Assembly (NCBI GenBank): GCA_919902655.1
Contig: CAKKRL010000162.1
Location: 251-64,250 of the forward strand
Length of the DNA stretch: 64,000 nucleotides
Origin: Thermodesulfovibrionia bacterium
Lineage (GTDB): Bacteria; Nitrospirota; Thermodesulfovibrionia; JACRGW01
Direction of reading: 5' to 3'
The notes under the pieces were generated by a model. It worked only from the letters and a program-made list of their open reading frames with translations, was not told the origin of the DNA and did no database searches. The translations under genes were made by a program, and so were the position numbers. Shown here one piece after another: positions 6,391 through 61,040 of the stretch. The first letter of the stretch is position 1. The number at the start of each line of letters is the position of its first letter.

Positions 6391-7955
6391 CCATCGAACC
6401 TCACAAAAATCGGATTGGTAATAAGTTGTTCACCAACAGCCAGTCGATAATATATCTTCTTTCCGGGTAGAAAATAATCGTCTTTGTATTTTATCATAAA
6501 ATCTTTCCTGGCAGAAAACGTTTCTTTGACCTCTCCATTCCGTATCAGGAAAATCTTTATTTCTTCTTTGGGCGGCTTTGGAAATTTTATATTTATCGTA
6601 ACCTCTATTCCTTCTCTGCTCTGCAACTCCTCTCCCATTGTCGCCTCTCCATCAGAGCTTCTTAGAGTAAAATCCTCAAGAATCGGTTTATCTATACCCC
6701 TTACCGCATAGGCCCTCCCCTTCTTTAATGCATCTAAAACCTCTTCTTCTTTAAAAACCTTAAGAAAAAATACGGTCTGCGTCATACCCATCCAGTCACC
6801 TTCTTTGTAATCAAGCTCCCCTATAGCCCATACAGGGCTATCCCTCTTACCTTCACAGTAATCCTTCAGAATCTGATCCCACAGTCCACCGGGTTTTCCC
6901 ATGATCTTGTATCCCTCCTCAAAGACAGCAAAGCCAGTGTATCCTTTTGTCTCCATGAGATCGTTGTAATATGGCGACGTACTTACTTTTACCTTCCCGC
7001 CTTCAAAGGCACCACCGGCTTCGTATTTTCCCTCTGCCTCAGGATGTGCCCAGTAGGTCAGGGCATTCTTCTTATTTGCATAATCTATCAGAAACTGGTA
7101 CGGCCCTGTACCCTTATCCCCGTGGTACTGGTTATAGATAGGCTCGCAGAATGGGAAATTATTAATGAGGAAGATGATACCCGATGTCAGGATAATTATA
7201 CCTGTTACAGAATATATCCTCCTTTTCTTTTTAATCGTAAATCCTCTGAGACGATAGACCCTTTCTCCTTTTTTCCTTAAGAGGATAACACCGGGGATAA
7301 AGACTGCTATGGGCCAGAGATTTATTATACAGAAAGGGCCTAATCTTAAAGGAAATCCATATCCCACAGAAGGGATACCATTATAATCCTCAGGACTCTT
7401 CAGGCCCAGGATAAGTATATGCTTATGCCAGTTATTAAGGGTCAGTTCTCTTTTTATAGGATTTCCCTCCCAGTAGTAAAAAGGCACAGCCTCTGCGCCA
7501 TGGAGTATGAGCATATCCGTATATCTCTTCCTTAATTCTTCGATGGTGTCTATATATCTCCCTGAACCGTATTCTCTTATCCCTCCCTTATCAACCCTCT
7601 TTTTTATTATCTTCCTCAGAAGTGGTAGGCCGTATTCAACCCTCATATTGTCATGATCAGTAATAATTGCGATTTTGAGACCTTGATCCCTTACCTTTCT
7701 CACCATCTCCTCTGGAGAAAGCGTGCCGCCTCCTATATTGGTATCGAGATGAATTACCCCCTCAACCCTCAGATATTCCGCAGCAGAGGATTCTGAAATC
7801 GTAAAGAAAAATATGAGAAAAAGAATCCCGAACCAGCCGAATCGATTTTTCCGTTTAAATCCCCCCCTGTCCCTCTTTAACCCCTCTATCTCCCCCCTTA
7901 GTAAGGGGGGAATAAAAGGGGGGTGAGGGGGGATTTTACATCTTTTTAAGGACAT
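6387..7955 (-). CDS. PHP-like metal-dependent phosphoesterase domain protein with internal TM segments. The annotated N-terminus is encoded by a palindromic repeat, so the true start is probably downstream.
   Basis: IHLDTNIGGGTLSPEEMV…KIAIITDHDNM resembles a PHP-domain N-terminus. Hydrophobic stretches sit mid-protein. The first ~35 codons overlap repeat family B and the small ORF at 7936-8115. Confidence 0.4.
   Translation of the reverse strand: MSLKRCKIPPHPPFIPPLLRGEIEGLKRDRGGFKRKNRFGWFGILFLIFFFTISESSAAEYLRVEGVIHLDTNIGGGTLSPEEMVRKVRDQGLKIAIITDHDNMRVEYGLPLLRKIIKKRVDKGGIREYGSGRYIDTIEELRKRYTDMLILHGAEAVPFYYWEGNPIKRELTLNNWHKHILILGLKSPEDYNGIPSVGYGFPLRLGPFCIINLWPIAVFIPGVILLRKKGERVYRLRGFTIKKKRRIYSVTGIIILTSGIIFLINNFPFCEPIYNQYHGDKGTGPYQFLIDYANKKNALTYWAHPEAEGKYEAGGAFEGGKVKVSTSPYYNDLMETKGYTGFAVFEEGYKIMGKPGGLWDQILKDYCEGKRDSPVWAIGELDYKEGDWMGMTQTVFFLKVFKEEEVLDALKKGRAYAVRGIDKPILEDFTLRSSDGEATMGEELQSREGIEVTINIKFPKPPKEEIKIFLIRNGEVKETFSARKDFMIKYKDDYFLPGKKIYYRLAVGEQLITNPIFVRFDG
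7861..7935. repeat. GC-rich palindromic repeat family B, copy 1 (ccccccctgtccc…cccccctta g taagggggg aataaaagggggg tgagggggg atttt)
   Basis: Contains the perfect hairpin CCCCCCTTA/TAAGGGGGG. A related copy sits at 35726-35808. Lies within the annotated N-terminus of the PHP protein. Confidence 0.6.
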
Positions 7956-29411: not shown

Positions 29412-31343
29412 TTACTGGAGGGTGAAAGTTACAACTATAGAATTCTTTGACCTCTTTGATTCGTATGTAACATTCTCTGGAAGGATTTCGAACATTATGC
29501 TGATGGTACTTCCTTCTTCTTCTATAATCACGTCACCTACAAATGATGATTTTAGCCTCTGGATCTTCTCCATCTTTCTCACAGCAGGTGTTACCTTGAG
29601 ATTGAGCCACTTTTTCCCTTCCTTTGTGACAAGGGAAGACTTATGGTCGACAGGGCCGTTAGAGGTGACCATGAGGATCGCCCTTTTCTTGCTCTCGATA
29701 ATCCCTATATCACTTACCTCGTAAGGCCCATGAACTGCCTCCTTCTTAGCTATCTCCTTCTTGGGTTCTGCCTTTTTAGCCTCTGCCGTCTCAATCTTTT
29801 TTGCTACTTTTGTTTCAGGCTTTTTTGATTCCTTGGGCTCAGGTTTTTTTTCAACATCCTTCTTGACCTCAGTTTTAGGTTTTACTTCAGGCTTTGGTTT
29901 TTTCTTTACCTCTGGCTGTGCTGGTTTTGGCTTCTCCTCTACCTTTTTGGCAGGTGCAGGTTCAACCTTTTTCTCTGCCGGTGGTTTGGCCGCTTCAACC
30001 TTTTTTTCTTTCTTAACTTCTTCCCTCGCCCCTTCTGTTTTTGGTCCCATCTTTGCATTTATGGAAAATGACTCTGCCTTGTCATATGTGGCATTTACGA
30101 CTGCTATCCCGTTTGCGAATTCAGATGGAGATACTGTTGACGGTGTAAAAGTCCCTGTACCGGTTATACTGATATAAACTTCTCCTCCAATTAGGTTGTA
30201 ATCACGGACAACGTTTTTAAATCTGTCATACGCCTCTATCCTCAGTTTGAAACCCTGGCCTGCTGAGGCTGTTTCAGGGGTAACGACGATAAAGTGGTCA
30301 GGGGTAGCTGGCCTGATCCTGACAGTTCCGCTTTTTCCGCTTTCCTTCTTATTGCTCTCTGTCGCAACTACCTCTATATTTTCAGCAACTTCGTAGGTGA
30401 CTTTTACTACAGCATTCCCCCCCTTGAATTCTGAAGGAGAGATACGGTCGGGGTAGACTTTTCCCTTCCCTGTGGATGTGAGTTGTACCCCATCACCAGT
30501 TGTATTGTAATTGGTAACAGGATTCCCTATTTTATCATGGGCCGTTATTATAATTTCAAAGGGGTTCCCTGCTATACCGTCCTTTGGGGCCTGTACATTT
30601 AACGCACTCATGGCTCCGGGCAAGATATTTATCGATGAACTCTTCCCCCTGATTCCTGAATATGGGTCATAAACATCTATAATTACCTCTCCTGCTTTCC
30701 CTGAAAGAAACCTTGCTGTTGCAACACCTGATTTGAAATTCAGGGCCCCGCTATCGAGGTATTTGAGTCCACCTGTTCCAGTCGTATTAATCCTGAAGTC
30801 CTTCCCTATCCCTGCATCATCCTTGATCATATTTTCGAAGGAGTCTCTTGCAACTATCCTCACATCAAATGTATCTCCTGCCTTTACCTGGTTAGGTGTC
30901 TGGAGCACAAAATTATCGAGCCTGTTAGGTTTTATTATTATTTCTTTTGAAAGTATCGGAACATTCCCGCCTGTCTCTAAAACAGAAAAGGTTATAGTCT
31001 CGGCCTTCTTATCTCTGATATTTATGGCGGCGCTTCCTCCAAGGAAATTTGACGGACTCAGGACCTTTGGTTCTGCCTTGGCACTGCCTGAAACCCTTAT
31101 CTCAAACTCCCTGCCTGTTTCGTTAAAATCGGTTATAAGGTTATTATACATATCATAGGACTGCAGTCTTACAACAATATTTTCCCCGGCAATCGGGGCA
31201 GGAGGAATTTGTACGGTAAAATGACTGAACTTTCCTGGTTTTACTGTTATGGTTGCAGCCTTAAGGTCATGGTAGCCTGATAAGAATAAGCAGAATAATG
31301 ACAAGATTAATAAAAAGAGAAACCTTTTATGGGTATTTACCAT
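29412..31343 (-). CDS. Secreted/surface protein with four tandem ~90-aa beta-sandwich (Ig-like) repeats, a Lys/Pro/Glu-rich linker and a C-terminal AMIN-like domain
   Basis: Signal peptide. Four internally similar repeats (…SPSNF.GG.A…, …AG..F.V.I.A.D.F.N…). About 100 aa of low-complexity KPEVKK linker. The C-terminal domain resembles the AMIN domain of the amidase at 47242. Confidence 0.5.
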   Translation of the reverse strand: MVNTHKRFLFLLILSLFCLFLSGYHDLKAATITVKPGKFSHFTVQIPPAPIAGENIVVRLQSYDMYNNLITDFNETGREFEIRVSGSAKAEPKVLSPSNFLGGSAAINIRDKKAETITFSVLETGGNVPILSKEIIIKPNRLDNFVLQTPNQVKAGDTFDVRIVARDSFENMIKDDAGIGKDFRINTTGTGGLKYLDSGALNFKSGVATARFLSGKAGEVIIDVYDPYSGIRGKSSSINILPGAMSALNVQAPKDGIAGNPFEIIITAHDKIGNPVTNYNTTGDGVQLTSTGKGKVYPDRISPSEFKGGNAVVKVTYEVAENIEVVATESNKKESGKSGTVRIRPATPDHFIVVTPETASAGQGFKLRIEAYDRFKNVVRDYNLIGGEVYISITGTGTFTPSTVSPSEFANGIAVVNATYDKAESFSINAKMGPKTEGAREEVKKEKKVEAAKPPAEKKVEPAPAKKVEEKPKPAQPEVKKKPKPEVKPKTEVKKDVEKKPEPKESKKPETKVAKKIETAEAKKAEPKKEIAKKEAVHGPYEVSDIGIIESKKRAILMVTSNGPVDHKSSLVTKEGKKWLNLKVTPAVRKMEKIQRLKSSFVGDVIIEEEGSTISIMFEILPENVTYESKRSKNSIVVTFTLQ

Positions 31344-31421
31344 ACACCCTCCTTTAAATAGTTTAACACGACAGCTTTTTCCCTGTTATTCCTACCACTT
31401 TTCTTTTAGAGTGTCAAGAAA

Positions 31422-31449
31422 AATCTCTTTATTGAAAACCCAATATAGC
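31422..31449 (+). promoter_or_regulatory. Candidate sigma70-type promoter (TTATTG-N16-TATAAT) for the ABC/PqqD/rSAM operon
   Basis: Read directly, 17 nt upstream of the ATG at 31466. Confidence 0.35.
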
Positions 31450-31465
31450 TTATAATCAATTATTA

Positions 31466-32197
31466 ATGAACACTAATAGTGCAATTAAGACCTTAAACCT
31501 CACTAAGTTTTTTACCTCTAAGGGTAACCCAATACTTGCCGTAGACGAAGTAACCATGGACATTTCTCAGGGAGAAATATTTGGTCTTATGGGGCCAAAC
31601 GGCGCAGGGAAGACAACCCTTTTAAAAATACTTACAACCCTTTTATTGCCGAGTTCAGGGGAGGCCTATGTTTCGGGTTACAGTATAAGGGAAGAGGATA
31701 AGGTCAAGGGTTCGATCGGTGTTATATCCTCAGAGGAAAGGAGCTTTTACTGGAGGCTTACAGGGAGAGAGAATCTCAGATTCTTTGCAACACTTCACAA
31801 CCTGAAGCCGTCAGAGATAAAAAGGAGAATCGAAAGCATAACCGGGACACTCGGATTGAAAGACTTTCTAGACAGAAGGTTTGATAGCTATTCCACAGGA
31901 ATGAAACAGAAACTCTTAATTGCAAGGAGTCTTATAGGTAACCCCATGGTTCTCTTTATTGACGAACTCACGAGGGGACTTGACCCTGTCGCAGCGTCAC
32001 AGATAAGAGAGAGCCTTAAAACCCTTTCTTCTAACGGCATAACGATCTTCCTTATTACCCATAGCATTGAAGAGGCGATAGAGGTCTGTGAAAGAGTTGC
32101 AATAATGTACCAGGGGAGTATAAAGGCCACTATAAGACCTGGGGAGGTAGAATTAAAAGATTTTATGATAGAGACTATTGGAGGCAGGATTGATTAA
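31466..32197 (+). CDS. ABC transporter ATP-binding protein (ABC-2 exporter type)
   Basis: Walker A GPNGAGKTT, the ABC signature and Walker B. Confidence 0.85.
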   Translation: MNTNSAIKTLNLTKFFTSKGNPILAVDEVTMDISQGEIFGLMGPNGAGKTTLLKILTTLLLPSSGEAYVSGYSIREEDKVKGSIGVISSEERSFYWRLTGRENLRFFATLHNLKPSEIKRRIESITGTLGLKDFLDRRFDSYSTGMKQKLLIARSLIGNPMVLFIDELTRGLDPVAASQIRESLKTLSSNGITIFLITHSIEEAIEVCERVAIMYQGSIKATIRPGEVELKDFMIETIGGRID

Positions 32198-33005
32198 TCA
32201 GATCTATAAAGTCATAGCCTTTCTCCGCAGGGATTTTAAGACAGAACTGAGTTACCGTTTTTCCTTCCTTTTAAACCTTGCAGGTATCTCCTTTTCTGTA
32301 ATAATGTTCTATTATATATCCAAACTATTCGGTAAGGCCGCATCCCCTTATCTGGAGGATTATGGAGGCGATTATTTCTCTTTTGTGATCATAGGTATAG
32401 CCTTTTCAGGCTATCTTTCTGTATCCCTCCACTCCTTCTCAGGGGCAATCAGGGAAGGGCAGATGCTCGGCACACTCGAGGCAATGATGGTAACACCAAC
32501 AGGGATACCTGCTATAATACTCTTTTCGGGCCTCTGGAGTTTTATATCAACAACTGTTGAGGTCATAATTTATTTATTGGCAGGTGTAATTATCTTTGGA
32601 CTTGACCTCGGAAAGGCAAATATCCTTTCTGCCATAACAGTAATGATCCTTACTATACTCTCCTTTTCTCCTCTCGGCGTTATATCTGCAAGCTTCATAA
32701 TGGCCTTCAAGAGGGGTGACCCGATAGCATTTTTATTCGGGTCAGCCTCTTCCCTTCTTGGAGGAGTCTATTATCCTATAACGATTCTTCCATCGTGGCT
32801 GCAGGACATCTCCCATCTTCTCCCCATCACATATTCACTAAGGGCAATGCGGTATTCCCTCATTAAAGGGTCTACACTATCAGAGATTTCATCTGACCTT
32901 TTTGCACTTGGTTTTTTTTCGGCATTTATGATACCTCTCAGCCTTATGGCATTTAGTTATGCTGTAAGGAAGGCAAAAGAAAAAGGTAGCCTGGGACAGT
33001 ATTAG
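32178..33005 (+). CDS. ABC-2 family transporter permease
   Basis: About six TM helices. Overlaps the ATPase gene by 20 nt. Confidence 0.75.
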   Translation: MEAGLINQIYKVIAFLRRDFKTELSYRFSFLLNLAGISFSVIMFYYISKLFGKAASPYLEDYGGDYFSFVIIGIAFSGYLSVSLHSFSGAIREGQMLGTLEAMMVTPTGIPAIILFSGLWSFISTTVEVIIYLLAGVIIFGLDLGKANILSAITVMILTILSFSPLGVISASFIMAFKRGDPIAFLFGSASSLLGGVYYPITILPSWLQDISHLLPITYSLRAMRYSLIKGSTLSEISSDLFALGFFSAFMIPLSLMAFSYAVRKAKEKGSLGQY

Positions 33006-33034
33006 AAAAATAATTTGTCTTGACACAACTTTTG

Positions 33035-33043
33035 TGGTATAAT
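33035..33043 (+). promoter_or_regulatory. Extended -10 promoter element (TGgTATAAT) immediately upstream of the PqqD gene
   Basis: tggtataat read directly. No properly spaced -35 (TTGACA is only 12 nt upstream). Confidence 0.35.
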
Positions 33044-33048
33044 TAATC

Positions 33049-33324
33049 ATGATTTACGAAAAAGACGAATCCATGGTCTTCAGGAAGATAGAGGATGAAA
33101 CAATCCTCGTCCCGATCAGAAACAAGGCAGGAGACCTCCAGAACATATTTGTCCTTAATGAGGTAGGGGCAAGGATCTGGGAGCTTATTGATGGTGAAAG
33201 TGATATAAATAAAATAAGCAGTACCATTTGTGCGGAATATGATATAACTTCTGAAGAAGCTGAAAGGGATTTAATGGATTTCATCGAAGACCTTAAGTCA
33301 ATAGAGGCATTGAAGGAAAAATAA
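33049..33324 (+). CDS. PqqD-family peptide-binding protein (stand-alone RiPP recognition element)
   Basis: About 85-90 aa: …VFRKIEDETILVPI…LNEVGARIWELIDG…S..I…E…DLMDFIEDL, the PqqD-like pattern. Start may be the ATG at 33073. Three nt upstream of the rSAM gene. Confidence 0.75.
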   Translation: MIYEKDESMVFRKIEDETILVPIRNKAGDLQNIFVLNEVGARIWELIDGESDINKISSTICAEYDITSEEAERDLMDFIEDLKSIEALKEK

Positions 33325-33326
33325 CT

Positions 33327-34412
33327 ATGGAATGTCAGAGAATCCATGAGATAAACTACAATGACTGGAGTAACGTCTTCCACAACAGGAATCTCGACAA
33401 AAGGGTGCCTATCTCAGGAAGCCTTGAACTCACCTTCAGATGCAACAATAACTGCATACACTGCTACTGTAACATACCTGCAAATGACAGAAATGAAATG
33501 TCTAAAGAGATGTCTACCTCTATGGCCACCAGAATCCTTAGTGAGATTGCAGATGAAGGGTGTCTCTGGCTCCTGCTTACAGGAGGCGAACCTCTTCTAA
33601 GGCCTGACTTTAAGGAGATATATCTCTATGCAAAGAAAAAAGGTATGCTCATAATATTATTTACAAACGGTACGCTTATTAATGAAGAAATAGCAGATCT
33701 CCTTTCAGAATGGATGCCCTACTCTGTAGAGATAACCCTTTATGGTGCCACAGAGAATACCTATGAGGATGTTACAAGGGTTCACGGCTCATACAGACAG
33801 TGTATGAAGGGTATTGAACTGCTTCTTGAGAGAAAAATCCCCCTCGAATTAAAGACGATGGCAATAAGGCAGAATGTCCATGAACTCCCTGTCATGAAGA
33901 AATATGCAGAAGACCTTGGCCTTAAATTCAGGTTCGACCCTATAATAAATGCCCGTTTAGATATGTGCAAGAACCCTCAATCAACAAGAATTGATATAGA
34001 GGATGTGATAAGGCTTGATCTCGAGGATGAAAAGAGATTAAAAGAATGGAAGGAATTCTGTGAAAAGTATATAGGTTCTCCTGATTCAGACAGGCTCTAT
34101 ACCTGCGGGGCTGGAATAAATACATTTCATATAGACCCATACGGTAACCTCAATATATGTATCATGGCAAGGAAGGATAGATATGATCTTAAGACAGGAA
34201 ACTTCAGAGATGGTTGGAATGATTTTTTAATTAAGCTAAGGGAAATGTCTATGAGCCCTTATAATAGATGTATGGGATGCGATCTCATGTCTCTCTGCGG
34301 TCAGTGCCCTGGATGGGCGCAAATGGAGCACGGGGATGATGAGACCCCTGTTGACTATTTATGTGATATTGCACACAAGAGGGCAGAGGCATTCGGGGTG
34401 AAAGGGCATTAG
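33327..34412 (+). CDS. Radical SAM/SPASM-domain peptide-modifying enzyme
   Basis: CNNNCIHC (CxxxCxxC). C-terminal SPASM cysteines (CGAGINTFHIDPYGNLNIC…CMGCDLMSLCGQCPG). Confidence 0.85.
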   Translation: MECQRIHEINYNDWSNVFHNRNLDKRVPISGSLELTFRCNNNCIHCYCNIPANDRNEMSKEMSTSMATRILSEIADEGCLWLLLTGGEPLLRPDFKEIYLYAKKKGMLIILFTNGTLINEEIADLLSEWMPYSVEITLYGATENTYEDVTRVHGSYRQCMKGIELLLERKIPLELKTMAIRQNVHELPVMKKYAEDLGLKFRFDPIINARLDMCKNPQSTRIDIEDVIRLDLEDEKRLKEWKEFCEKYIGSPDSDRLYTCGAGINTFHIDPYGNLNICIMARKDRYDLKTGNFRDGWNDFLIKLREMSMSPYNRCMGCDLMSLCGQCPGWAQMEHGDDETPVDYLCDIAHKRAEAFGVKGH

Positions 34413-34493
34413 GGGGATAAAAGCGATTGAGAATATAAAGGGGAAAGGGAGAAAGAGCAACTATAGACTACGGACTTAAAAACAGGAGGACAA

Positions 34494-34748
34494 ATGGATA
34501 AACTTTTAAAGTTAGATAAAACAGGCGATTCAATACTTCTTAAAGAGATAAAAAAATCATTAGGCTTGAAACTTGATGATGAACTTTTCTTGTTCAGCGG
34601 AAAGGATTATCTGGTAATTAAAAAGGTTCAGAGACCTTCCCTTTCTGAGCGTTTTAAGAGCCTTTCTGAGAAGACAGAGAAACGATTTAAAAAAGAGGGG
34701 TTAAAAGAGGATGTGGTAGTTGAGGCTATTAAATGGGCACGAAGATAG
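34494..34748 (+). CDS. AbrB/MazE/SpoVT-type swapped-hairpin antitoxin-like protein
   Basis: LKLDKTGDSILLKEIKKSLGLKLDDELFLF…YLVIKK resembles an AbrB-type DNA-binding fold. Overlaps the truncated PIN ORF by 16 nt. Confidence 0.5.
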   Translation: MDKLLKLDKTGDSILLKEIKKSLGLKLDDELFLFSGKDYLVIKKVQRPSLSERFKSLSEKTEKRFKKEGLKEDVVVEAIKWARR

Positions 34749-34807
34749 TGCTCGATACCAATGTATTTGTTTCAGCAATCGGTTTGAGGCAAGGCCTCAA
34801 AGAGTAG
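34733..34807 (+). pseudogene. Truncated PIN-domain (VapC) toxin remnant, 24 codons then a stop
   Basis: MGTKIVLDTNVFVSAIGLRQGLKE* is a typical VapC N-terminus (…VLDTNV…) ended prematurely by TAG. Confidence 0.55.
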
Positions 34808-34810
34808 CGA

Positions 34811-34845
34811 GCCTGTTTCCAGAAGCTGTTCGGGAAACAGCCTTA
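34811..34845 (+). terminator. Stem-loop (cctgtttcc…ggaaacagc) just upstream of the peptide promoter; possible terminator or insulator
   Basis: 8-9 bp stem with a 12-nt loop, read directly. No U-tract. Confidence 0.3.
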
Positions 34846-34851
34846 CGATTC

Positions 34852-34880
34852 TTGACAGGAATGAAGATGGATAGTAAAAT
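34852..34880 (+). promoter_or_regulatory. Near-consensus sigma70 promoter TTGACA-N17-TAAAAT dedicated to the small peptide gene
   Basis: TTGACA at 34852-34857, a 17-nt spacer, TAAAAT at 34875-34880, then AAGGAGG and an ATG 9 nt later. Confidence 0.6.
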
Positions 34881-34903
34881 CAAAACAAAGGAGGATTAGC
34901 ACT

Positions 34904-35071
34904 ATGACAAAAAAGGCATATGAAAAACCCAAGGTAAGTAAGGTACCTTTAAAGACATCAGAGGCAGTTCTGACTGCATGTAAAGGTCCAGGTTCAAGGG
35001 GCCCCGGTTCTCTCGTAGGAAATTGTAGAGGCACCGCAGGCCGTGACTGTTCCTCTTGGAGTAGGACATAA
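34904..35071 (+). CDS. 55-aa Cys/Gly/Ser-rich small peptide, a candidate RiPP precursor; not in the ORF track
   Basis: MTKKAYEKPKVSKVPLKTSEAVLTACKGPGSRGPGSLVGNCRGTAGRDCSSWSRT. SD AGGAGG 9 nt upstream and its own promoter. The listed antisense ORF 34843..35034 is probably spurious. Confidence 0.6.
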   Translation: MTKKAYEKPKVSKVPLKTSEAVLTACKGPGSRGPGSLVGNCRGTAGRDCSSWSRT

Positions 35072-35089
35072 ACCTATATCACCGTATCC

Positions 35090-36166
35090 TTGTTACTACT
35101 CAGAATCGCAGATATAAACCTTCTCTTTAAGTCTGATCTCAAAGGGCTAAAGATCGGCTATCCTCAAAAGAATTTTATTCATTCCACATTCCCTCAATCC
35201 TCTCCCCAAAAGGGAGTGGAGGCAAAAAAGAAAGTCCCCTCTCCCCAACGGGGAGAGGGTCAGGGTGAGGGGGAAATTATTGACTGCACCATATCTATAG
35301 AACACCACCCTCTACCCTTTAATATTAAAGATAAAGAGATCTTCAGCCATGCAGGACCCTGGAAACTTTTCAGGAACAGAAAAGGTTATAAGATTGCCTT
35401 CTTTTTCCCCGCTTTAAAGCCTGATTATTACATGCTTGCAGAATTTAAAAGGGATTTCTCAAGGGTAAGACTATATATAAAAGACGCGGATCTTCGCTAC
35501 GCTCAGAATGACAAGCGAAGGGCTCAGAATGACAACAAGAAGACCTTTATTATTTCCCATCCCCTTGACCAGCTTTTAGTCATCAACCTCCTCTCCCGTG
35601 GCAGAGGAGTAATGATACACTCCTGTTGTGTCAATGATAACGGAAGGGGTTTCCTTTATGCCGGGACATCTCGCTCTGGCAAGAGTACGACTGCGAAACT
35701 CTGGTTAAAGCAGACAAAACCCTCCGAATCCCCCCACACCCCACTTTGGAAAAGGGATAATCCCCCTTCCTCCCCCTTTATTAAAGGGGGAATAGAGGGG
35801 GATTTTAAAGATATGACAGGAGTGAAGGTTTTAAGCGATGACAGGATTATAATCAGAGAGTTTGATGATAAGATCTATGCCTATGGCACACCCTGGCATG
35901 GGGAGGTAAATGTCTGTGATCCTGGAAGGGTGGAGATAGAAAGGATATTCTTCCTTCAACACTCGACGAAAAACTATGTGAAGTCACTTCCTCCTGTGGA
36001 TGCAGCAACGAGGATGTTTGTCAGATGCTTCCCCACCTTCTGGGATAAGGAAGGTATGGCATTTACACTGAAATTCATAGATGAGGTGGTCAGGAAAGTC
36101 CCCTGCTATGAATTCGGATTCGTGCCGGATAAAAGTGCGGTCAATTTCGTTAGAGGGCTTCGCTGA
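35090..36166 (+). CDS. HPr kinase/phosphorylase-like P-loop kinase (HprK-related). Its N-terminal region carries three in-frame repeat-element insertions. The start is uncertain: the track lists TTG at 35090, and the first ATG is at about 35432.
   Basis: P-loop LYAGTSRSGKST (HprK Walker A pattern G-x-S-G-x-GKS) plus downstream DDRII…GTPWHGE. Repeat families A, C and B lie in frame. Confidence 0.5.
   Translation: MLLLRIADINLLFKSDLKGLKIGYPQKNFIHSTFPQSSPQKGVEAKKKVPSPQRGEGQGEGEIIDCTISIEHHPLPFNIKDKEIFSHAGPWKLFRNRKGYKIAFFFPALKPDYYMLAEFKRDFSRVRLYIKDADLRYAQNDKRRAQNDNKKTFIISHPLDQLLVINLLSRGRGVMIHSCCVNDNGRGFLYAGTSRSGKSTTAKLWLKQTKPSESPHTPLWKRDNPPSSPFIKGGIEGDFKDMTGVKVLSDDRIIIREFDDKIYAYGTPWHGEVNVCDPGRVEIERIFFLQHSTKNYVKSLPPVDAATRMFVRCFPTFWDKEGMAFTLKFIDEVVRKVPCYEFGFVPDKSAVNFVRGLR
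35190..35281. repeat. Palindromic repeat family A, copy 1 (tccctcaatcctctcccc … cccctctcccc aac ggggagaggg … gggtgaggggg), in frame in the HprK-like ORF
   Basis: Shares the core CCTCAATCCTCTCCCC…GGGGAGAGG with copies at 36449-36500 and 50519-50562. Confidence 0.6.
35501..35540. repeat. Repeat family C, copy 1: tandem gctcagaatgacaa(gcgaag)ggctcagaatgacaa, in frame in the HprK-like ORF (encoding AQNDKRRAQNDNK)
   Basis: A near-identical arrangement at 52165-52205 (ggactcggaatgacaagcaaaggactcagaatgacaa) is intergenic. Confidence 0.55.
35726..35808. repeat. Repeat family B, copy 2, in frame in the HprK-like ORF (encoding …SPHTPLWKRDNPPSSPFIKGGIEGDFK)
   Basis: aatccccccacacccc…atcccccttcctccccctttattaaagggggaatagagggggatttt aligns with the reverse complement of 7861-7935. 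Confidence 0.55.
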
Positions 36167-36188
36167 ATAAGTGAGGACAGGCGAGACG

Positions 36189-36261
36189 CCTGTCCTACCA
36201 ATACGGATGACGAAACAAGGAAAAAGTAGGTCAGGCGTCTCGCCTGACAAAGTGGAATCGC
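36189..36261 (+). terminator. Pair of near-identical inverted hairpins (ggacaggcgagacgcctgtcc … gtcaggcgtctcgcctgac); terminator/attenuator-like
   Basis: Stems of 9 bp and 8 bp with 3-nt loops, about 40 nt apart. They are reverse complements of one another. Confidence 0.4.
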
Positions 36262-36276
36262 TCAATTTAGGTTAAT

Positions 36277-36831
36277 ATGAAACCCGACCTCCAGACTATA
36301 ACATCCATAATCCTTGATGAAGGATACTATGCTGCTTTACCCACAATAGGCCCATCTATGTACCCTGTTATTAGAGCAGGCGACAAAATCTATGTTGAAT
36401 CCCTTATGGGAAGGACGCCTGAAACTGGAGATATTGTACTCTTTAAATCCCCCTCACCTCAATCCTCTCCTCTACGAGCCATGGCCCCAAGGGGAGAGGA
36501 AGTAAGTGTAGAGTCCTCTCTCTCTAATAGAGAAGAAGTAATTATGGTATGCCACAGGCTTCTGAAGATATTCAAGAAGGATGGTACTACTTATTATCAA
36601 ACAAGAGGAGATGCCTATTTCTATAAAGACATACCTATAACATATGACCAGATTATCGGAAGGGTTGTAAAGGTTGAACGGTCTGTAGTATCTTTGCCAA
36701 GGAAGATCCTTTTGACTTTAAACCCCTTCTTAGGAAAATTTACCATACTGAATGCAGCTATAATTACTGTATTGGTATGGATTAAAAAGGCTTTAGTAAA
36801 AAATAACCATTTGTTTATCGGTTATTTTTAG
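36277..36831 (+). CDS. S24/S26 (signal peptidase I / LexA-like) serine peptidase-fold protein with a C-terminal TM helix and a repeat-encoded insertion
   Basis: PTIGPSMYPVIRAGDKIYVE (the GxSMxP nucleophile region of S26/S24). Insertion …SPSPQSSPLRAMAPRGEEVSVESS… is encoded by repeat family A. Confidence 0.45.
   Translation: MKPDLQTITSIILDEGYYAALPTIGPSMYPVIRAGDKIYVESLMGRTPETGDIVLFKSPSPQSSPLRAMAPRGEEVSVESSLSNREEVIMVCHRLLKIFKKDGTTYYQTRGDAYFYKDIPITYDQIIGRVVKVERSVVSLPRKILLTLNPFLGKFTILNAAIITVLVWIKKALVKNNHLFIGYF
36449..36500. repeat. Repeat family A, copy 2, in frame in the S26-like ORF (encoding SPSPQSSPLRAMAPRGEE)
   Basis: ccctcacctcaatcctctcc…ggggagagga. Same reading frame (PQSSP) as copy 1. 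Confidence 0.55.
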
Positions 36832-37749
36832 TTACTGGGAATGTATATCTTCTTCTGATACAAGAGAGATTATATAGAGCAGAGGGTTCTCTTTAAGATT
36901 TATTTTTCTCCTTGTCGCAGGCTTACGGCCCTGTGGATCAAACAGGATCTCTACAGCCGGTCTGAATGGGGAAATGCTATCGGTGGATACAACAATCGCA
37001 ATCTCCTTAGAATTCAGTCTAACTATAGTGCCTACAGGGAAGACAGGAAGTTTGGACATAAGTGCCTTTATAACCTTCTCGGGAAAAGAGGCCCTCTCGG
37101 CTGAAAGGATCTCTTTCATGGAATCGAAGGGAGGAAGATTCTTTCTCTGGAACCTGTGATGGGTAAGCGCCTCATAGACATCGGCTATCCCTATAATGAG
37201 GGCAAACTCATGGATCTCATTGCCCTTGAGCCCTTTCGGATAACCTCTCCCGTTAAACCTCTCATGCTCCTGAAGGATGATCTCTGAAATCCAGAGATTA
37301 TCTTCGCTGAATTTATTCAGAATCTTTACTCCCTCTTCAGGGTGTCTCTTCACGGTATCAAACTCTTCATCATTTAACTTCCCCGGCTTTTTAATGATAT
37401 TTTCAGGAACACCAGCCATACCGATGTCGTGGATGATGGCAGCAAGGCCTAACCTCTCAAGGTCATCCCTGTTATAATTAAGCGCTATACCTATCTCGGT
37501 TGCGAATATACAGACATTCAAGAGATGTGATGGGAGATCAAAACCCTTTGTCTTTGAATACAGGGCCCTTCTGACAAGGTGATCCCCTGCAAAAAGACTA
37601 TCAACAATCCCGGATATAACCTCGGAGACAGGGTTTAGAGAAAAAGATTTACCTTTCTTAACATCCTGAAAAATCTTCTCTATCTGATCTCTGCCATTCT
37701 CATAAAGAGCCGTTTCGATATTCTCCTCCTCTTGGACCTTTATTATCAC
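36832..37749 (-). CDS. HD-GYP domain phosphohydrolase (putative c-di-GMP phosphodiesterase)
   Basis: HDIGM…, H-D pair, and HHERFNGRGYPKGL (GYP motif). Confidence 0.75.
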   Translation of the reverse strand: MIIKVQEEENIETALYENGRDQIEKIFQDVKKGKSFSLNPVSEVISGIVDSLFAGDHLVRRALYSKTKGFDLPSHLLNVCIFATEIGIALNYNRDDLERLGLAAIIHDIGMAGVPENIIKKPGKLNDEEFDTVKRHPEEGVKILNKFSEDNLWISEIILQEHERFNGRGYPKGLKGNEIHEFALIIGIADVYEALTHHRFQRKNLPPFDSMKEILSAERASFPEKVIKALMSKLPVFPVGTIVRLNSKEIAIVVSTDSISPFRPAVEILFDPQGRKPATRRKINLKENPLLYIISLVSEEDIHSQ

Positions 37750-37827
37750 TTCGGTACTAATTCCCTCCTGCTAAAATTAAGTATTTGTTAATAATAAATA
37801 TCATTTTGGTCATTTTGTCAAGTTTTT

Positions 37828-38790
37828 TTAGACCCTTACGGATTTTTTATCAATATTTATCTTTTTCATAAAATAGTCCAGCGTATTGGAAAGCCCCTCT
37901 CCGAGGCTGACCTGTGGCTCCCATCCCAGCAGGGATTTTGCCTTTGAAATGTCAGGTTGCCTTACCTTCGGATCGTCTTCAGGCAGGGGTTTAAAAACTA
38001 TTCGGCTCTTGCTTCCTGTAATGCTTATTATCTCCTCAGCCATTTTAAGAACTGACATCTCTTCGGGGTTTCCGATATTCACCGGTGTATCCACATCGGA
38101 GTGTAGGAGGCGATATATACCATCAACCATATCGTCTATGTAGCAGAAACTCCTTGTCTGGGAGCCGTCTCCAAAGACAGTTATATCTTCTCCTCTTAAT
38201 GCCTGAACCATAAATGTGGGAATTGCCCTTCCGTCATTCAGTCTCATCCTCGGGCCATAGGTATTAAATATCCTGACTATCCTTGTCTCAACACCATGGT
38301 AACGGTTGTATGCCATGGTAATTGCCTCTGCAAATCTCTTTGCCTCGTCATAGACACCCCTTGGGCCTATAGGATTTACATTTCCCCAGTAATCCTCCCG
38401 CTGGGGGTGGATCAGAGGGTCTCCATAGACCTCAGATGTAGATGCCAGGAGGATCCTCGAACCTTTTGCCTTTGCAAGACCCAGCGCTTTATGTGTTCCG
38501 AGAGAACCTACCTTAAGGGTCTGTATAGGTAGCGAATGATAATCTATCGGACTTGCCGGACTTGCAAAATGGAGTATATAATCCACATTCCCTTCAACAT
38601 AGATATAGTTTGTAACATCATAGTGGATAAATGAAAACCTCTTATCCCTGATATGCGAGATATTAGCCACATCCCCGGTGATAAGATTATCCATACAGAT
38701 AACCTCATAATCTTCTAAGAGGAATCTATCAGCAAGATGGGAGCCTATAAACCCTGCCCCTCCTGTTATTAGAACCCTTCCTTTAATCAT
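37828..38790 (-). CDS. UDP-glucuronate decarboxylase / UDP-xylose synthase-like NAD-dependent SDR
   Basis: [12 protein letters not shown] Rossmann motif and the YDEAKR catalytic motif. Overall similarity to UXS/ArnA-C. Directly downstream of ugd. Confidence 0.7.
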
Positions 38791-40091
38791 TTCCCCCTCC
38801 CTACCCCTGTATATCTTATACCCATCTCCTTCATTTTCTTTGGGTCGTAAATATTCTTGAGATCTATTACCACAGGCTTCTTCAGGAGACTCTTTATCTT
38901 ATTTATTTCAAGATTTCTGAACTGATTCCACTCAGTAATGATTACGAGTGCATCAGACCCATCTGCCACCCCGTAAGGGTCATTACAGTACTCTATATCA
39001 TCGAGGAACTTCTTTGCCTCCTCCATTGCTGCGGGGTCGTATGCCCTGATCTTTGCCCCCTCCTTCTGAAGACCCTTTATTATGGAGACCGATGGTGCGT
39101 CCCTCATATCATCCGTATTCGGTTTAAATGAGAGGCCCAGGATACCTATCCTTTTATCCTTCAATTCTCCGGTTTCCTTCTTTATCTTCTCTACCATAAG
39201 TGCCCTCTGTCTCTTATTCACCTTTATAACGGCCTTTACTATCTCAAAGTCATAACCATGTTCCTTGGCTATATTCACTATGGCAGATGTGTCCTTCGGG
39301 AAGCAGGAACCTCCGAATCCAGGGCCCGGATGAAGGAATTTTGTCCCGATCCTGTTATCATGGCCCATCCCCTTCGCTACCATATGGACATCTGCCCCGA
39401 CCCTCTCGCAGATATTTGCAATCTCGTTAATAAATGACACCTTTGTTGCCAGGAAGGCATTTGATGCATACTTTATCATCTCGGCCGTCTTGATGTCTGT
39501 AACTATAAAGGGGGTCTCTATAAGGTAAAGGGGAGCGTAGAGGTCTCTCATTATAGCAATCGCATGGTCGCTCTCGGCGCCGATTACTACCCTGTTCGGC
39601 CTCATGAAATCCTCTATGGCAGATCCTTCCCTCAGGAACTCGGGGTTGGATACTATATCAAAGTCTACCTTCTCCTTCTGTTTCTCCCCTATGATCTTTC
39701 TTATCTTCTCACCTGTTCCAACAGGCACTGTACTCTTTGTGACTATCACCTTATATCCATTCATGTTCTCTGCAATACTGTGTGCAACCGCCTCCACATA
39801 GGAAAGATCAGCAGAGCCATCCTCCATTGAAGGCGTACCTACAGCTATAAAAATACCGAGCGATCTTTTTACAGAACCGGCAAGGTCTGTGGTAAAGGAA
39901 AGTCTCCCGTCTTTAATGTTCCTCTTTACAAGTTCCTCAAGGCCCGGTTCGAATATAGGTATAATCCCATTAGAAAGGTCTTTTATCTTCTTTTCATCTT
40001 TATCAACACCGACGACCTTCAGTCCGAATTCTGCAAAGCAGGCCCCTGTTACCAGACCTACATAACCCGTTCCAACAACACAGATGTTCAT
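38787..40091 (-). CDS. ugd: UDP-glucose 6-dehydrogenase
   Basis: [24 protein letters not shown]-terminus and the catalytic GGSCFPKD. The track ORF extends 14 codons upstream to 40133; the true start is probably 40091. Confidence 0.85.
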
Positions 40092-40948
40092 AGTGAAACC
40101 CTTTCTCCATAATCCCTCAGCGTCTCTTCCCATTTCCTCATCCTGTATCCAGTCAGCTTAAAATATCTGTCATTGCTCAATACAGAATATGAAGGCCTCT
40201 TCGCAGGTCTTTTCAGCTCACCGGATTTTATCGGTATAACATTCACGCCCTTTATCCCCTTTATTCTTATTATCTCTTTCGCAAAATCATACCAGGAACA
40301 TTCCCCTGAATTACTGCAATGGACAATACCCGCTGCATCTGAATCAATCAACCTCTCTATTGATTCTGAGAGGTCTACAGTATAAGTGGGTGAGCCTGTC
40401 TGGTCATCCACAACCCTTATTTCATCTTTTTCATTCGATAACCTCAGGATCGTATCAACAAAATTCCTTCCGTTTTTACCGAAGAGCCATGAGGTCCGTA
40501 TAATAAGAGTCTGGAGTCTGGAGTCTGGAGTCTGAAGTCTGGAGATTTCCTGCTCTCCTTCAAGTTTGGACTGTCCGTATATATTTATTGGCCTTGGCTC
40601 ATCATCCTCTTTATATGGTTCCTTCTTCTCTCCGTTAAAGACATAATCTGTACTGATGTGTATGAACCTTGCATTCACTTCATAACATCCTGTTGCCACA
40701 TTTCTCGCCCCACCCCTGTTCACTTTAAATGCCACTTCCCTCTCTGTCTCGCAGGCATCAACATCTGTGAATGCAGCAGTATTTATAACAAGTTCGGGAA
40801 TTATTTTTTTTATTCCCCTTATAGTCTCTGCCTCGTCCGTAATATCGAAATCTTCAACATCAACACCTTTTACATCATTCTTTATAGAAAGCCTTTTTAC
40901 AAGATCAGTTCCAAGCATCCCCTTTGCACCTGTCACAAGAATCCTCAT
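40088..40948 (-). CDS. rfbD: dTDP-4-dehydrorhamnose reductase
   Basis: MRILVTGAKGMLG…, …RTSWLFG…, and a C-terminal pattern typical of RfbD. Contains an in-frame heptamer-repeat insertion (EISRLQTPDSRLQT). Confidence 0.8.
   Translation of the reverse strand: MRILVTGAKGMLGTDLVKRLSIKNDVKGVDVEDFDITDEAETIRGIKKIIPELVINTAAFTDVDACETEREVAFKVNRGGARNVATGCYEVNARFIHISTDYVFNGEKKEPYKEDDEPRPINIYGQSKLEGEQEISRLQTPDSRLQTLIIRTSWLFGKNGRNFVDTILRLSNEKDEIRVVDDQTGSPTYTVDLSESIERLIDSDAAGIVHCSNSGECSWYDFAKEIIRIKGIKGVNVIPIKSGELKRPAKRPSYSVLSNDRYFKLTGYRMRKWEETLRDYGERVSL
40508..40550. repeat. Tandem heptamer (GAGTCTG)x5 within rfbD, in frame
   Basis: gagtctggagtctggagtctggagtctgaagtctggag read directly. Translates on the minus strand to EISRLQTPDSRLQT. 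Confidence 0.7.
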
Positions 40949-40950
40949 AA

Positions 40951-41035
40951 TTTAGTCTATCAGTCAACAGTCTATAGTCGACCAGTAGATTGAAAGACTG
41001 CTGACTGCCGACTCAAGACTGATTTGCACCAGTCC
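40951..41035. repeat. Long hairpin built from tandem heptamers (cagtcta/cagtcaa …) and their complements (agactgc/tgactgc…) at the rfbD/rfbB junction
   Basis: tagtctatcagtcaacagtctatagtcgaccagtagattgaaagactgctgactgccgactcaagactgat. Overlaps the 3' end of rfbB. Confidence 0.6.
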
Positions 41036-41970: not shown

Positions 41971-42000
41971 TTTAATTATCGAAGACCCGACCTATAGGGC

Positions 42001-42065
42001 GGATTTTGGATTTTGGATTTTGGATTTTAAATCTCCAATCCGCAATCTGAAATCCAAAATTGATA
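42001..42065. repeat. (GGATTTT)x4 tandem heptamers followed by their complementary arm (aaatctc caatccg caatctg aaatcca aaat), at the rfbB/rfbC junction
   Basis: Read directly. Confidence 0.65.
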
Positions 42066-42521
42066 TTATCCATCCTTCCTTTCCCAGTTGTATGGAATAT
42101 CTTTTGTACGGGGGTCGATCCTGAACTCATCGGGTTCTCCGTAGTTATATGGCACTGTAGGACAGTTAATTACTATTGACTCAGTCTCACCTGTTCCCTT
42201 GAACCCATGAAGTACATAAGGTGGTATCTGGATAAGAAGCGGGTTATGTTCTCCGATAAAGAATTCGTTCAGCTCACCCTTTGTCGGGGATTCCTCCCTC
42301 GGATCATAGAGGACAAGTTTTATCACACCTTTCACACAAACAAAATTATCCACTTGTTTCTTATGATAATGCCAACCTTTTACAACTAAAGGATAGACTG
42401 TAGTCATATAGATCTGTCCGAACTTAATAAACAACTCGTCATCGGCCCTCAGCATCTCCATAAGCCTCCCCCTCTCATCAGGGATGACCTTTAGCTTTTT
42501 TATTTTAACTCCGTCTATCAT
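42066..42521 (-). CDS. rfbC: dTDP-4-dehydrorhamnose 3,5-epimerase (cupin)
   Basis: …IPDERGRLMEM…GWHYHKKQ… pattern of RmlC. Confidence 0.8.
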   Translation of the reverse strand: MIDGVKIKKLKVIPDERGRLMEMLRADDELFIKFGQIYMTTVYPLVVKGWHYHKKQVDNFVCVKGVIKLVLYDPREESPTKGELNEFFIGEHNPLLIQIPPYVLHGFKGTGETESIVINCPTVPYNYGEPDEFRIDPRTKDIPYNWERKDG

Positions 42522-50373: not shown

Positions 50374-50568
50374 CTACTCACGGCATGGCAGTTCGCCGCG
50401 AGGCCTTCCTTGTTTTATCAGACGACACAAGCACCTTAAATTACTTCCCCTCCGATTTCGAATCAATCAACCTGTTGAAATAGTCCTCTTTTGTCACCCA
50501 AATTCATTTCATGGTCTTATCCCCTCACCTTCATCCTCTCCCCTTAGGGGAGAGGGGTGGGTATGAGC

Positions 50569-51072: not shown

Positions 51073-52179
51073 TTACACCTTCTTTCCGACAATAACAGCC
51101 TCGTTTCCATTTGCAAAAAGATAAACCTCTGTCTTCATCCCTACACGATGAAACTCGGCCTCTATCTCTTCAGGCATGAGGAAATGATTTCCCTGAATAT
51201 GTTCTGCAAGGTTCTGGAATACCATCCCTTTCTTCATCGGGTCACGCAGTTCAGAACGGTCCTTTGGCCAGTTAGGTTCCCATATTACTGCTGAACCGCC
51301 AGCCTTGAGGTGTTCCTTTAAAATACGAAACACATCCTCTTTCTTATCCCATACATGGTGCAAGGCACGGTTCATAGCGATTAAATTAGCAGGTTCGCTA
51401 GCAGAAAAATGGTAGATATCACCATTCATAAATTTCAATCTATCACTCAGGCCATTGTCCTGTGCAATCTTTGTGGCCTGATTAATATTCTCTTCAAAAC
51501 CATCAAGCCCTATCCCCCTGAGATGAGGAAATCGTGTTACAATCCTTCTCAGATACCACCCGTTTCCACAACCAAGATCGATAATTAGACCTCCTTTCTC
51601 ATCTGTCTCTCTGTACACCGGCACATTCGGAAGTATCTGTTGTTCAAATACTCCACTGAACATGGCTTCAAGCATCGGTCCGAACAGGGGCAGGATACTC
51701 GTTCTCTCTGCCAGTACCATTTCACCCGGACGTTCACCGCTTCTCATTAAAGATGCCGCCCTTTCACACATATGTGCAGAAAGCACAGACTGAACTGAAA
51801 AAGGCATCGCAGTTCCGGGTGTCTCAGCAATGAAGGAACTTCCAATATCTGTAAGACTGAATTTCCCATCACTCTCGTCCAGAAGACCGAACGCATAAGC
51901 AGCATCACACCAGCGATTCAGATAATCTCTATCCAGTCCTGTTTTCCCTGCCAGTTCGTCAGGTGTAGCCTTTCTATCCCTATTTAATACAGAAAAAAGA
52001 TTATTCGATATTCCGATAAATGCTATATTAAGCATCATCGCCCCCTGCATTTGTGAAATTATCTGTTTACGCAATTCCTCTGAAACACTCATAGATTTTT
52101 CCTCCTGTTGAGATTTTTCATGCCGAGCAAAAAAAATGAGATTCCTCCTCCCCATTCCTATCTGGACTCGGAATGACAA
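51073..52179 (-). CDS. Class I SAM-dependent methyltransferase with an N-terminal winged-helix/dimerisation domain (O-methyltransferase-like). The likely true start is MSVSEEL at about 52092.
   Basis: LIIDLGCGNGWYL motif I. The N-terminal ~90 aa look like the dimerisation domain of plant/bacterial O-MTases. Confidence 0.65.
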   Translation of the reverse strand: MSFRVQIGMGRRNLIFFARHEKSQQEEKSMSVSEELRKQIISQMQGAMMLNIAFIGISNNLFSVLNRDRKATPDELAGKTGLDRDYLNRWCDAAYAFGLLDESDGKFSLTDIGSSFIAETPGTAMPFSVQSVLSAHMCERAASLMRSGERPGEMVLAERTSILPLFGPMLEAMFSGVFEQQILPNVPVYRETDEKGGLIIDLGCGNGWYLRRIVTRFPHLRGIGLDGFEENINQATKIAQDNGLSDRLKFMNGDIYHFSASEPANLIAMNRALHHVWDKKEDVFRILKEHLKAGGSAVIWEPNWPKDRSELRDPMKKGMVFQNLAEHIQGNHFLMPEEIEAEFHRVGMKTEVYLFANGNEAVIVGKKV

Positions 52180-52205
52180 GCAAAGGACTCAGAATGACAA
52201 TCAAG
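52165..52205. repeat. Repeat family C, copy 2 (intergenic)
   Basis: ggactcggaatgacaagcaaaggactcagaatgacaatcaagg. Confidence 0.5.
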
Positions 52206-60954: not shown

Positions 60955-61040
60955 CGAACAACTAATAAAATCCCCCTCAATTCCCCTTCCTGCCTGTCGG
61001 CAGACAGGTTTCAAAGGGGGGTGGAGGGGTTTTTTTAAAA
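60955..61040 (+). terminator. Nested GC-rich palindrome after acpP (cccctcaattcccc…cctgcctgtcggcagacagg…aaggggggtggagggg TTTTTTT), intrinsic-terminator-like
   Basis: Inner 8-bp stem cctgcctg/cagacagg, outer C-rich/G-rich arms, then a T7 tract. Read directly. Confidence 0.55.

Follow-up and report, generated by a model that had tools for sequence, protein, structure and literature searches.

Repeat segments read in frame within a putative ScmC-family gene of a Thermodesulfovibrionia bacterium

How a gene of about 1 kb can hold three different repeat elements and still be read as a single open frame is the question raised by an open reading frame (ORF) at positions 35090 to 36166 of a 64,000-nucleotide stretch of DNA (hereafter the window) from a Thermodesulfovibrionia bacterium of the Nitrospirota (GenBank contig CAKKRL010000162.1). 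An earlier note on this DNA had described the product as HPr-kinase-like, with segments of repeat families A, C and B read in frame and without stops, and had offered three accounts of it: a protein that tolerates several loop insertions, an N-terminal third that is not translated, or a gene in decay. We found the single ORF with its three repeat segments as described, including every peptide quoted, the P-loop GTSRSGKST, the ATG at 35432 and the TTG that opens the frame. Each of the three families has at least one further copy in the window, and the repeat cores lie where the note had placed them. The best explanation, which we consider probable, is that the ORF encodes an intact protein of the ScmC family that has tolerated, in its loops, in-frame insertions of repeats resembling miniature transposable elements with inverted repeats (MITEs) or repetitive extragenic palindromic (REP) sequences.

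The insertion sites, the product and its predicted fold

The three sites, which occur in the order A, C, B along the gene (Table 1), differ in length and composition. At site A, 102 nt replace a 36-nt linker of the orthologues (a net gain of 66 nt), at site C 54 nt replace 9 nt (net 45 nt) and at site B 111 nt replace 9 nt (net 102 nt). All three gains are multiples of three and are stop-free in the frame used. As only two of the three forward frames of A and of C, and a single one of B, are free of stops, three clean read-throughs would be unlikely had selection not filtered them. Elements A and B have common ends (AAATCCCCCTC), are G+C-rich in a window of 43% G+C and are predicted to fold stably as RNA, at -47.1 kcal/mol (z -3.4 against shuffled sequences) and -37.2 kcal/mol (z -2.5), respectively. 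No excess folding energy was found at site C (z -0.3). The repeat nature of the segments is thus palindromic for A and B and not for C, which consists of two direct repeats of 21 nt. At 45–111 nt the inserts have no capacity to code for a transposase; this, the dispersed copies and the existence of filled and empty orthologous sites are all characteristic of MITE/REP elements, and A and B additionally possess the inverted repeats that C lacks.

That these are in-frame, stop-free insertions, as had been claimed, is borne out by loci L002 and L003, which have the same gene order and encode a 288-aa orthologue without A, B or C. It is scarcely credible that the segments are artefacts of metagenome assembly produced by mis-joins at repeats. 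The source is a metagenome-assembled genome (MAG), and one of the loci compared, L001, is a mosaic contig of low coverage. L206, however, a single-sample assembly made independently, contains all three inserts and is 99.96% identical to the window (3 mismatches over 7,077 nt), and the inserts are therefore not assembly artefacts. Insert B and a further insert in the adjacent peptidase gene were also found independently in L001, and the frame is kept, unlike in random mis-joins. Inteins and group I or group II introns were rejected as candidates because the segments are too small, and translational bypassing because the segments contain no stop and bypassing would be unneeded.

The ORF opens at the first start codon past an in-frame stop at 35069-71. 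Its product carries the P-loop at residues 192-200 and an SDD motif at 249-251 (within LSDDR, 248-252), both in columns that are invariant or nearly so in the family alignment, and so has the Walker A P-loop and acidic strand that mark the HPr kinase/phosphorylase superfamily. A protein search returned 354 homologues, usually of 280-300 aa, with PF27840 (ScmC) in nearly all of them; the same is true of the 120 homologues listed, over which the spacing and occupancy counts given below were taken. The syntenic orthologue from L002 (P0004) has a clear match to PF27840, and a precomputed match of the protein identical to that of the window (P0001) is marked 'faint'. A genome scan located at least 591 ScmC-type loci in many phyla, the closest among the matches listed being Nitrospirae/Nitrospiraceae MAGs. 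With respect to NCBIfam, the ScmC, HprK-related kinase A, HprK-related kinase B and HPr(Ser) kinase models all scored below threshold (18-31 bits against cut-offs of 125-200 for the first three). The SynChlorMet ScmC equivalog model TIGR04249 gave 18.3 bits, or 23.4 bits when the inserts were removed in silico (cut-off 125), and TIGR00679, for HPr(Ser) kinase/phosphatase proper, gave 22-25 bits (cut-off 240). The N-terminal HprK domain had no Pfam match in the protein. On these scores the protein would belong to the broad Pfam family PF27840 and be the equivalog of no named NCBIfam family.

An AlphaFold model of the 358-aa protein (predicted local distance difference test, pLDDT, 83.1; predicted template modelling score, pTM, 0.82) retrieved HprK/P structures as its top Foldseek matches (2qmh, 1knx, 1kkl and 3tqf; probability 0.98-1.00, E ~4e-4 to 1e-3), followed by phosphoenolpyruvate carboxykinase (PEPCK), with TM-scores that were modest at 0.42-0.52 normalised to the target. 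The family profile aligns to HprK/P 1ko7 over the P-loop and the following ADD/SDD strand, at a marginal level of sequence similarity (E 0.011). The description HPr-kinase-like accordingly holds at the level of fold and superfamily, the specific family being ScmC/PF27840 instead, and we take the product to be a P-loop protein of the HPr-kinase superfamily with a putative enzymatic role.

The low-confidence stretches of the model coincide with all three inserts. Site A corresponds to a coil at residues ~34-65 (pLDDT 52-64) between strands 30-33 and 66-72, and site C to a stretch of low pLDDT at ~131-150 between strands 125-130 and 153-155, in which a low-confidence helix is modelled at 132-145. 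Site B, at residues 208-244 (pLDDT 42-47), follows helix 198-207 and precedes the strand 245-249 with SDD; it is the turn that joins the P-loop helix to the SDD-bearing strand, and its counterpart in the alignment to HprK/P is KRGH, the short turn leading from the P-loop helix to the ADD strand. In P-loop topology generally, the turn after the P-loop helix is remote from the phosphate-binding loop, and the site B turn would likewise be at the end of the helix away from that loop. Tolerance of several loop insertions, the first account offered by the earlier note, is supported by this picture: an orthologue lacks the segments, these have low pLDDT and lie between structural elements, their lengths are multiples of three and the invariant residues are kept.

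We propose that three short interspersed genomic repeats landed in the ScmC gene, A and B as MITE/REP-like nested palindromes and C as a 2x21-nt direct repeat, moved presumably by transposition or recombination. Such inserts would persist where they fall in a loop, measure a multiple of three and leave a stop-free frame, and would be translated as disordered loops that do not disturb fold or catalytic motifs. The frame, and not the inserted peptide, would then be what selection keeps, the added loops being probably neutral in function.

Integrity, start and history of the gene

The first ATG of the frame, at 35432, corresponds to M115 (MLAEF), and the protein is homologous to the family from residue 2 onwards. 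Family members align over residues 2-33 and 66-130, with F29, F85 and W91 nearly invariant, and the model contains strands at 2-6 and 9-15 with a pLDDT of ~94. The TTG start is kept in L001, L002 and L005, 7-18 nt past the stop of an upstream gene for a candidate precursor peptide. The window protein retains every family residue that is invariant or nearly so. Against L002 and L005, the ratio of nonsynonymous to synonymous substitution rates (dN/dS) lies at 0.13-0.20 over residues 1-155 and at 0.12-0.16 over the remainder, values that are approximate because dS exceeds 1. Translation most likely starts, on these comparisons, at TTG 35090, perhaps by coupling to the precursor gene.

Several observations, the approximate nature of these ratios among them, weigh against an intact gene with tolerated insertions of mobile repeats. 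No Shine-Dalgarno sequence was recognisable within 15 nt of TTG 35090. In L207, a diverged orthologue (~70% nt identity), a 365-codon frame is open at 2611-3705 but the TTG is replaced by TTC TTA and there is no canonical start, so that start usage in the clade is not fully settled. The AlphaFold loop calls are predictions, and gaps in the alignment of homologues force low confidence at the inserts. As for mobility, each repeat family has few copies (2-3 within the 64-kb window), target-site duplications were not recognised, the flanks being too diverged from the empty sites, and no transposase could be linked to the repeats in a window whose ORFs were only partly scanned for one; the case for movement is consequently the one made by presence or absence and by the distribution of copies.

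The position of the first ATG and the want of a clear Shine-Dalgarno sequence ahead of the TTG would suit a downstream start, at ATG 35432 or at GTG 35216, with the N-terminal part including insert A as an untranslated leader. Existing gene calls offer some support for such a start, as the L207 homologue P0005 is called from the equivalent Met and the NCBI protein MEK6693361.1 (316 aa) begins at GTG 35216. We nevertheless find a downstream start improbable in view of the aligned N-terminal residues, their low dN/dS and the confident strands within residues 2-15, and because the L207 frame is open for ~130 codons upstream of the Met, across a repeat. GTG 35216 lies within insert A, is absent from orthologues and would drop 42 conserved N-terminal residues. 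In L207 itself, for which the gene caller gave only the C-terminal 234 aa of the ScmC orthologue, the TTG may be missing through a sequencing error or early decay, or because a non-canonical start is used. P0002 and P0003, both called from a GTG, run into the precursor gene in a different frame and are evidently gene-calling artefacts.

A decaying pseudogene, with inserts that signal relaxed constraint and an open frame that is only a remnant, would account for the presence of five repeat copies within ~1.3 kb, for the lower identity of the peptide-maturation core to a sister genome (70-87% at the nucleotide level vs 92-93% for the flanks), for the missing canonical start of L207 and for the low hidden Markov model (HMM) scores to curated families. 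It is quite improbable, however, given 358 codons with no stop, insert lengths that are all multiples of three, the retention of every invariant family residue and dN/dS values of 0.12-0.20 in both halves; furthermore, A and B have been kept in frame across ~30% nucleotide divergence via compensating indels. We therefore read ORF 35090-36166 as intact and apparently under purifying selection, and the same evidence (homology from residue 2, low dN/dS, confident strands and a conserved TTG) runs counter to both of the remaining accounts in the earlier note, the untranslated N-terminal third and the decaying gene.

The intact gene with tolerated insertions can also be followed through its orthologues. 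The earlier note had reasoned that the same segments in orthologues would point to conserved native sequence; A and B are indeed found again at these sites in some orthologues, but not as conserved native sequence. L207 has a homologous A element at the identical site and in the same orientation, with a tandem repeat of 12 nt nested in it. Its left arm is read in another frame than that of the window element (VLSPKGRG vs SSPQKG), and the frame of the right arm is common to both, so that compensating indels must have occurred. B-type elements at site B of L207 and L006 are homologous to each other and have their left part in common with window B, and B elements too are read in shifted frames among orthologues. 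Site B of L005 holds a different, compound element, and L001 carries B together with the peptidase-gene insert. Neither L001 nor L005 has A or C, and a B-type element is absent from site B of L002, P0007, P0008, P0009 and P0010. Across the family, the spacing is 8 residues at site A in 89 of 120 homologues and at site B in 87 of 120, with extra residues at site B in 23. Since A and B derive from repeats, vary, are read in more than one frame and are missing from most family members, we regard them as old insertions and not native sequence, apparently reshaped by indels and nested repeats and unconstrained in their peptide. The site C insert, seen in this strain only, is probably recent.

The persistence of B-type inserts at the same turn in several diverged orthologues, the presence of A in L207 as well and the extra residues at site B could alternatively mean that the inserts have been co-opted, either as a protein docking surface or as mRNA hairpins tuning the translation or stability of a precursor-ScmC-peptidase transcript, for which the very stable predicted hairpins of A (-47 kcal/mol) and B (-37 kcal/mol) would be suited. 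Co-option seems rather unlikely to us, because homologous elements use different reading frames and have very different lengths and sequences, and because the close orthologue in L002 and most of the family are without inserts. A pLDDT below 50 suggests no defined structure, the elements had no Rfam match, and a terminator scan called no plus-strand terminator-like site in them.

Recombination may also have contributed to the diversity of the locus. L001, which comes from the same aquifer well, matches the window without a difference over 1,284 nt (35627-36910) and is strongly diverged upstream (dS ~1.4), the diverged part comprising the precursor gene and the ScmC N-domain. The identical tract indicates either recent recombination or a chimeric low-coverage contig, and the extent of the divergence suggests that the precursor and the ScmC N-domain may be exchanged as a unit. 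A breakpoint at insert C was considered and rejected, as mismatches run on to 35626. In P0006 an L207-like B insert is joined to an N-domain of a different type. Because the family is mosaic in this way (L001, P0006), recombination could spread or remove inserts, and the inserts may go back either to one old gain followed by losses or transfers or to repeated gains.

Gene neighbourhood and further copies of the repeats

The genes around ORF 35090-36166 (Table 1) resemble a cluster for ribosomally synthesised, post-translationally modified peptides (RiPPs), and its product is, to judge from this context, probably an accessory enzyme of radical-SAM/PqqD peptide maturation. The candidate precursor gene, whose stop is 18 nt ahead of the ScmC TTG, has small homologous genes in the same position in L001, L002, L005 and L207. 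It encodes a leader of the form M.KK.YEKPKVSKV.LKTSE.VL.ACKGP and a Cys-containing core ending in SRT, and the Shine-Dalgarno sequence AAGGAGG lies between the promoter-like site and the gene. The PqqD-like protein scored 32 bits against TIGR04248 (cut-off 100) and the radical SAM/SPASM protein 92 bits against TIGR04250 (cut-off 400). The architecture appears analogous to that of the SynChlorMet cassette, but by these scores the proteins are not the named ScmD/ScmE/ScmF equivalogs.

Table 1. Coordinates of the ScmC-family gene, its insertion sites, neighbouring genes and further repeats in the window
Feature	Position	Strand	Description
ABC-2 permease	32178-33005		RiPP-type cluster
PqqD-like protein	33049-33324		RiPP-type cluster
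Radical SAM/SPASM enzyme	33327-34412		RiPP-type cluster
AbrB/antitoxin-like small ORF	34494-34748		Gap between radical SAM and precursor genes
Promoter-like site	34852..34880	+	TTGACA, 17 nt, TAAAAT; 11/12 consensus positions; consensus match only
Candidate RiPP precursor	34904..35071	+	55 aa; same frame as ScmC gene; small homologous genes at same position elsewhere
ScmC-family gene	35090..36166	+	358 aa; TTG start 35090; PF27840; predicted HPr-kinase/PEPCK-like P-loop fold
Site A	35180..35281	+	Nested G+C-rich composite palindrome, core ~35190-35274; residues 31-64
Site C	35483..35536	+	Two 21-nt direct units GCTCAGAATGACAA at 35501 and 35522; residues 132-149
Site B	35708..35818	+	Palindromic, inverted ends AATCCCCC../..GGGGGATTT, core 35726-35808; residues 207-243
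ScmC-peptidase spacer	36167..36276		110 nt; two inverted copies of CAGGCGAGACGCCTG (21-nt arms, 95% complementary)
S24/S26 signal-peptidase-like gene	36277..36831	+	184 aa
A-like palindrome	36443..36503	+	Read in frame in peptidase gene as SPSPQSSPLRAMAPRGEEV
A-family copy	50499..50566		Intergenic
B-family copy	7852..7934		Encodes first ~38 codons of minus-strand ORF 6387-7955 (MSLKRCKIPPHPPFIPPLLRGEIEGLKRDRGGFKRKNR)
B-like copy	60966..61030		Intergenic; hairpin then T run, z -5.2
C-family copy	52166..52205		Upstream of likely ATG 52092 (AGGAGG Shine-Dalgarno) of minus-strand gene

The precursor peptides have a common leader and a C-terminal Thr, in RT or KT before the stop (window; L001 1-240; L002 5635-6000; L207 2430-2869), and a single precursor copy is present in the window vs a tandem pair in orthologues. 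If the ScmC-like protein is a kinase, the conserved Thr would be a candidate target, for which phosphorylated lasso peptides are reportedly a parallel. The gap between the radical SAM and precursor genes is occupied in other genomes by HEPN/nucleotidyltransferase pairs and Uma2 (L002 4623-5494; L207 361-2387) and looks like an insertion hotspot. The difference in identity between flanks and core noted above (window 29928-42251 vs L002) likewise gives the RiPP core the appearance of a hypervariable island, and the locus as a whole looks like a hotspot of turnover.

The repeats are not confined to the ScmC gene. The peptidase gene contains an A-like palindrome that is read in frame; the L002 peptidase has a shorter version of it at the same site, the window protein being 12 aa longer, so this insert too is presumably older and reshaped. 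In the 110-nt spacer between the ScmC and peptidase genes, the inverted CAGGCGAGACGCCTG copies represent a fourth repeat type at the locus. L002 is without this spacer, and its ScmC and peptidase genes overlap at ATGA. Elsewhere in the window, the B-family element at 7852-7934 appears to supply the N-terminus of ORF 6387-7955. The MSLKRCKIPPHPPFIPPLLRGEIEGLKRDRGGFKRKNR segment precedes a hydrophobic signal-like segment of that ORF, and there is no other start codon ahead of the latter. At 52166-52205 two direct copies of TTGTCATTC[TC]GAGTCC are 21 nt apart, a direct repeat that may be regulatory and not a mobile element. We also noted a perfect intergenic hairpin of G15/C15 type at 290-331 (40 nt, 95% self-complementary).

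Pattern searches of the window with the repeats gave 3, 1 and 4 matches, where shuffled sequences gave 0.00, 0.00 and 0.54 on expectation and no single shuffle reached the observed number. As repeat queries derived from the locus bias any clustering statistic by the choice of query, we relied instead on a window-wide scan for C/G-rich hairpins, which found six strong sites, three of them within the ScmC and peptidase genes (~2% of the window; P ~2e-4 by our own rough binomial calculation). Exact patterns of the A, A-arm and C motifs, applied to 85 and then to 207 fetched loci, matched only in L005 and L206, and the elements are thus not common near ScmC genes of other phyla. The core motif of A (CCTCTCCCC-N3-GGGGAGAGG-N5-GGTGAGGGG) was found on at least 120 metagenome contigs with G+C contents of 35-74% (L086-L205), often as full nested palindromes or tandem arrays. 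We know of no name for this widespread repeat type, and Rfam returned nothing credible, either for the whole window at gathering thresholds or for the locus at E<=1.

Comparison with known systems

Literature searches on ScmC/SynChlorMet, on HPr kinase with RiPP and on MITE with Nitrospirota found nothing specific; the one useful source was the MITE review PMC10969869. ScmC (TIGR04249/PF27840) and the HprK-related kinases A and B (TIGR04352, TIGR04355) similarly have a P-loop GxSxxGKST followed by an SDD strand, an HPr-kinase/PEPCK-like fold and PqqD-like and radical SAM/SPASM neighbours; the window protein differs in scoring far below the curated cut-offs. HprK/P provides the best structural matches in the PDB, with alignment of the P-loop and the ADD/SDD strand, but its N-terminal domain is missing here and the context is one of peptide maturation, not of carbon catabolite control.

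The inserts in the ScmC gene have consequences for annotation. They lower HMM scores, such that one weak family match is obtained with inserts vs four without; insert A provides a spurious GTG start that is in public use; and gene callers elsewhere have over-extended the ScmC gene into the precursor gene or truncated it.

The inserts share with MITEs and with REP sequences and bacterial interspersed mosaic elements (BIMEs), a group that includes ERIC, BOX, Correia and Nezha (PMC10969869), their small size, inverted-repeat or hairpin structure and lack of transposase coding, as well as a mostly intergenic distribution with occasional intragenic, in-frame copies. MITEs are typically lineage-restricted, whereas the A core motif occurs on contigs that differ widely in G+C. 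MITE insertions that lie within genes and keep the frame are known and are exceptionally frequent for the Rickettsia palindromic elements (RPEs) (PMC10969869), termed 'protein-coding palindromes', which are inserted in unrelated genes at positions compatible with the fold (Ogata et al. 2000, 2002, summarised in PMC10969869). What we describe is therefore an event of a kind already known, with Rickettsia as its best documented case, that is here unusually dense in a free-living bacterium: three repeat families occur in one 1-kb gene, the same loops are reused across orthologues and homologous elements are read in shifted frames. In-frame colonisation of genes by short palindromic repeats is dense in an environmental member of the Nitrospirota too, and natural filled and empty alleles exist in the same aquifer.

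It is conceivable, though we hold it to be unlikely, that the widespread A-core palindrome family acts in free-living bacteria as the Rickettsia palindromes do, repeatedly colonising coding loops, and that the turn after the P-loop helix is a long-lived, reshaped insertion module, possibly with a role, be it as part of the protein surface or as a hairpin in the mRNA that sets the expression ratio of precursor to downstream enzymes. The likeness to RPEs, assessed here by architecture and mode of insertion, extends to short dispersed palindromes inside ORFs, an intact frame, fold-compatible positions, several families and retention across related genomes. The differences are that RPEs reside in an obligate intracellular alphaproteobacterium and the present elements in a free-living groundwater Nitrospirota, that RPEs measure ~150 nt and these elements ~45-100 nt, that the latter are G+C-rich in a genome of 43% G+C, that one insert (C) is non-palindromic and that the peptide encoded here is not conserved, homologous copies being read in different frames.

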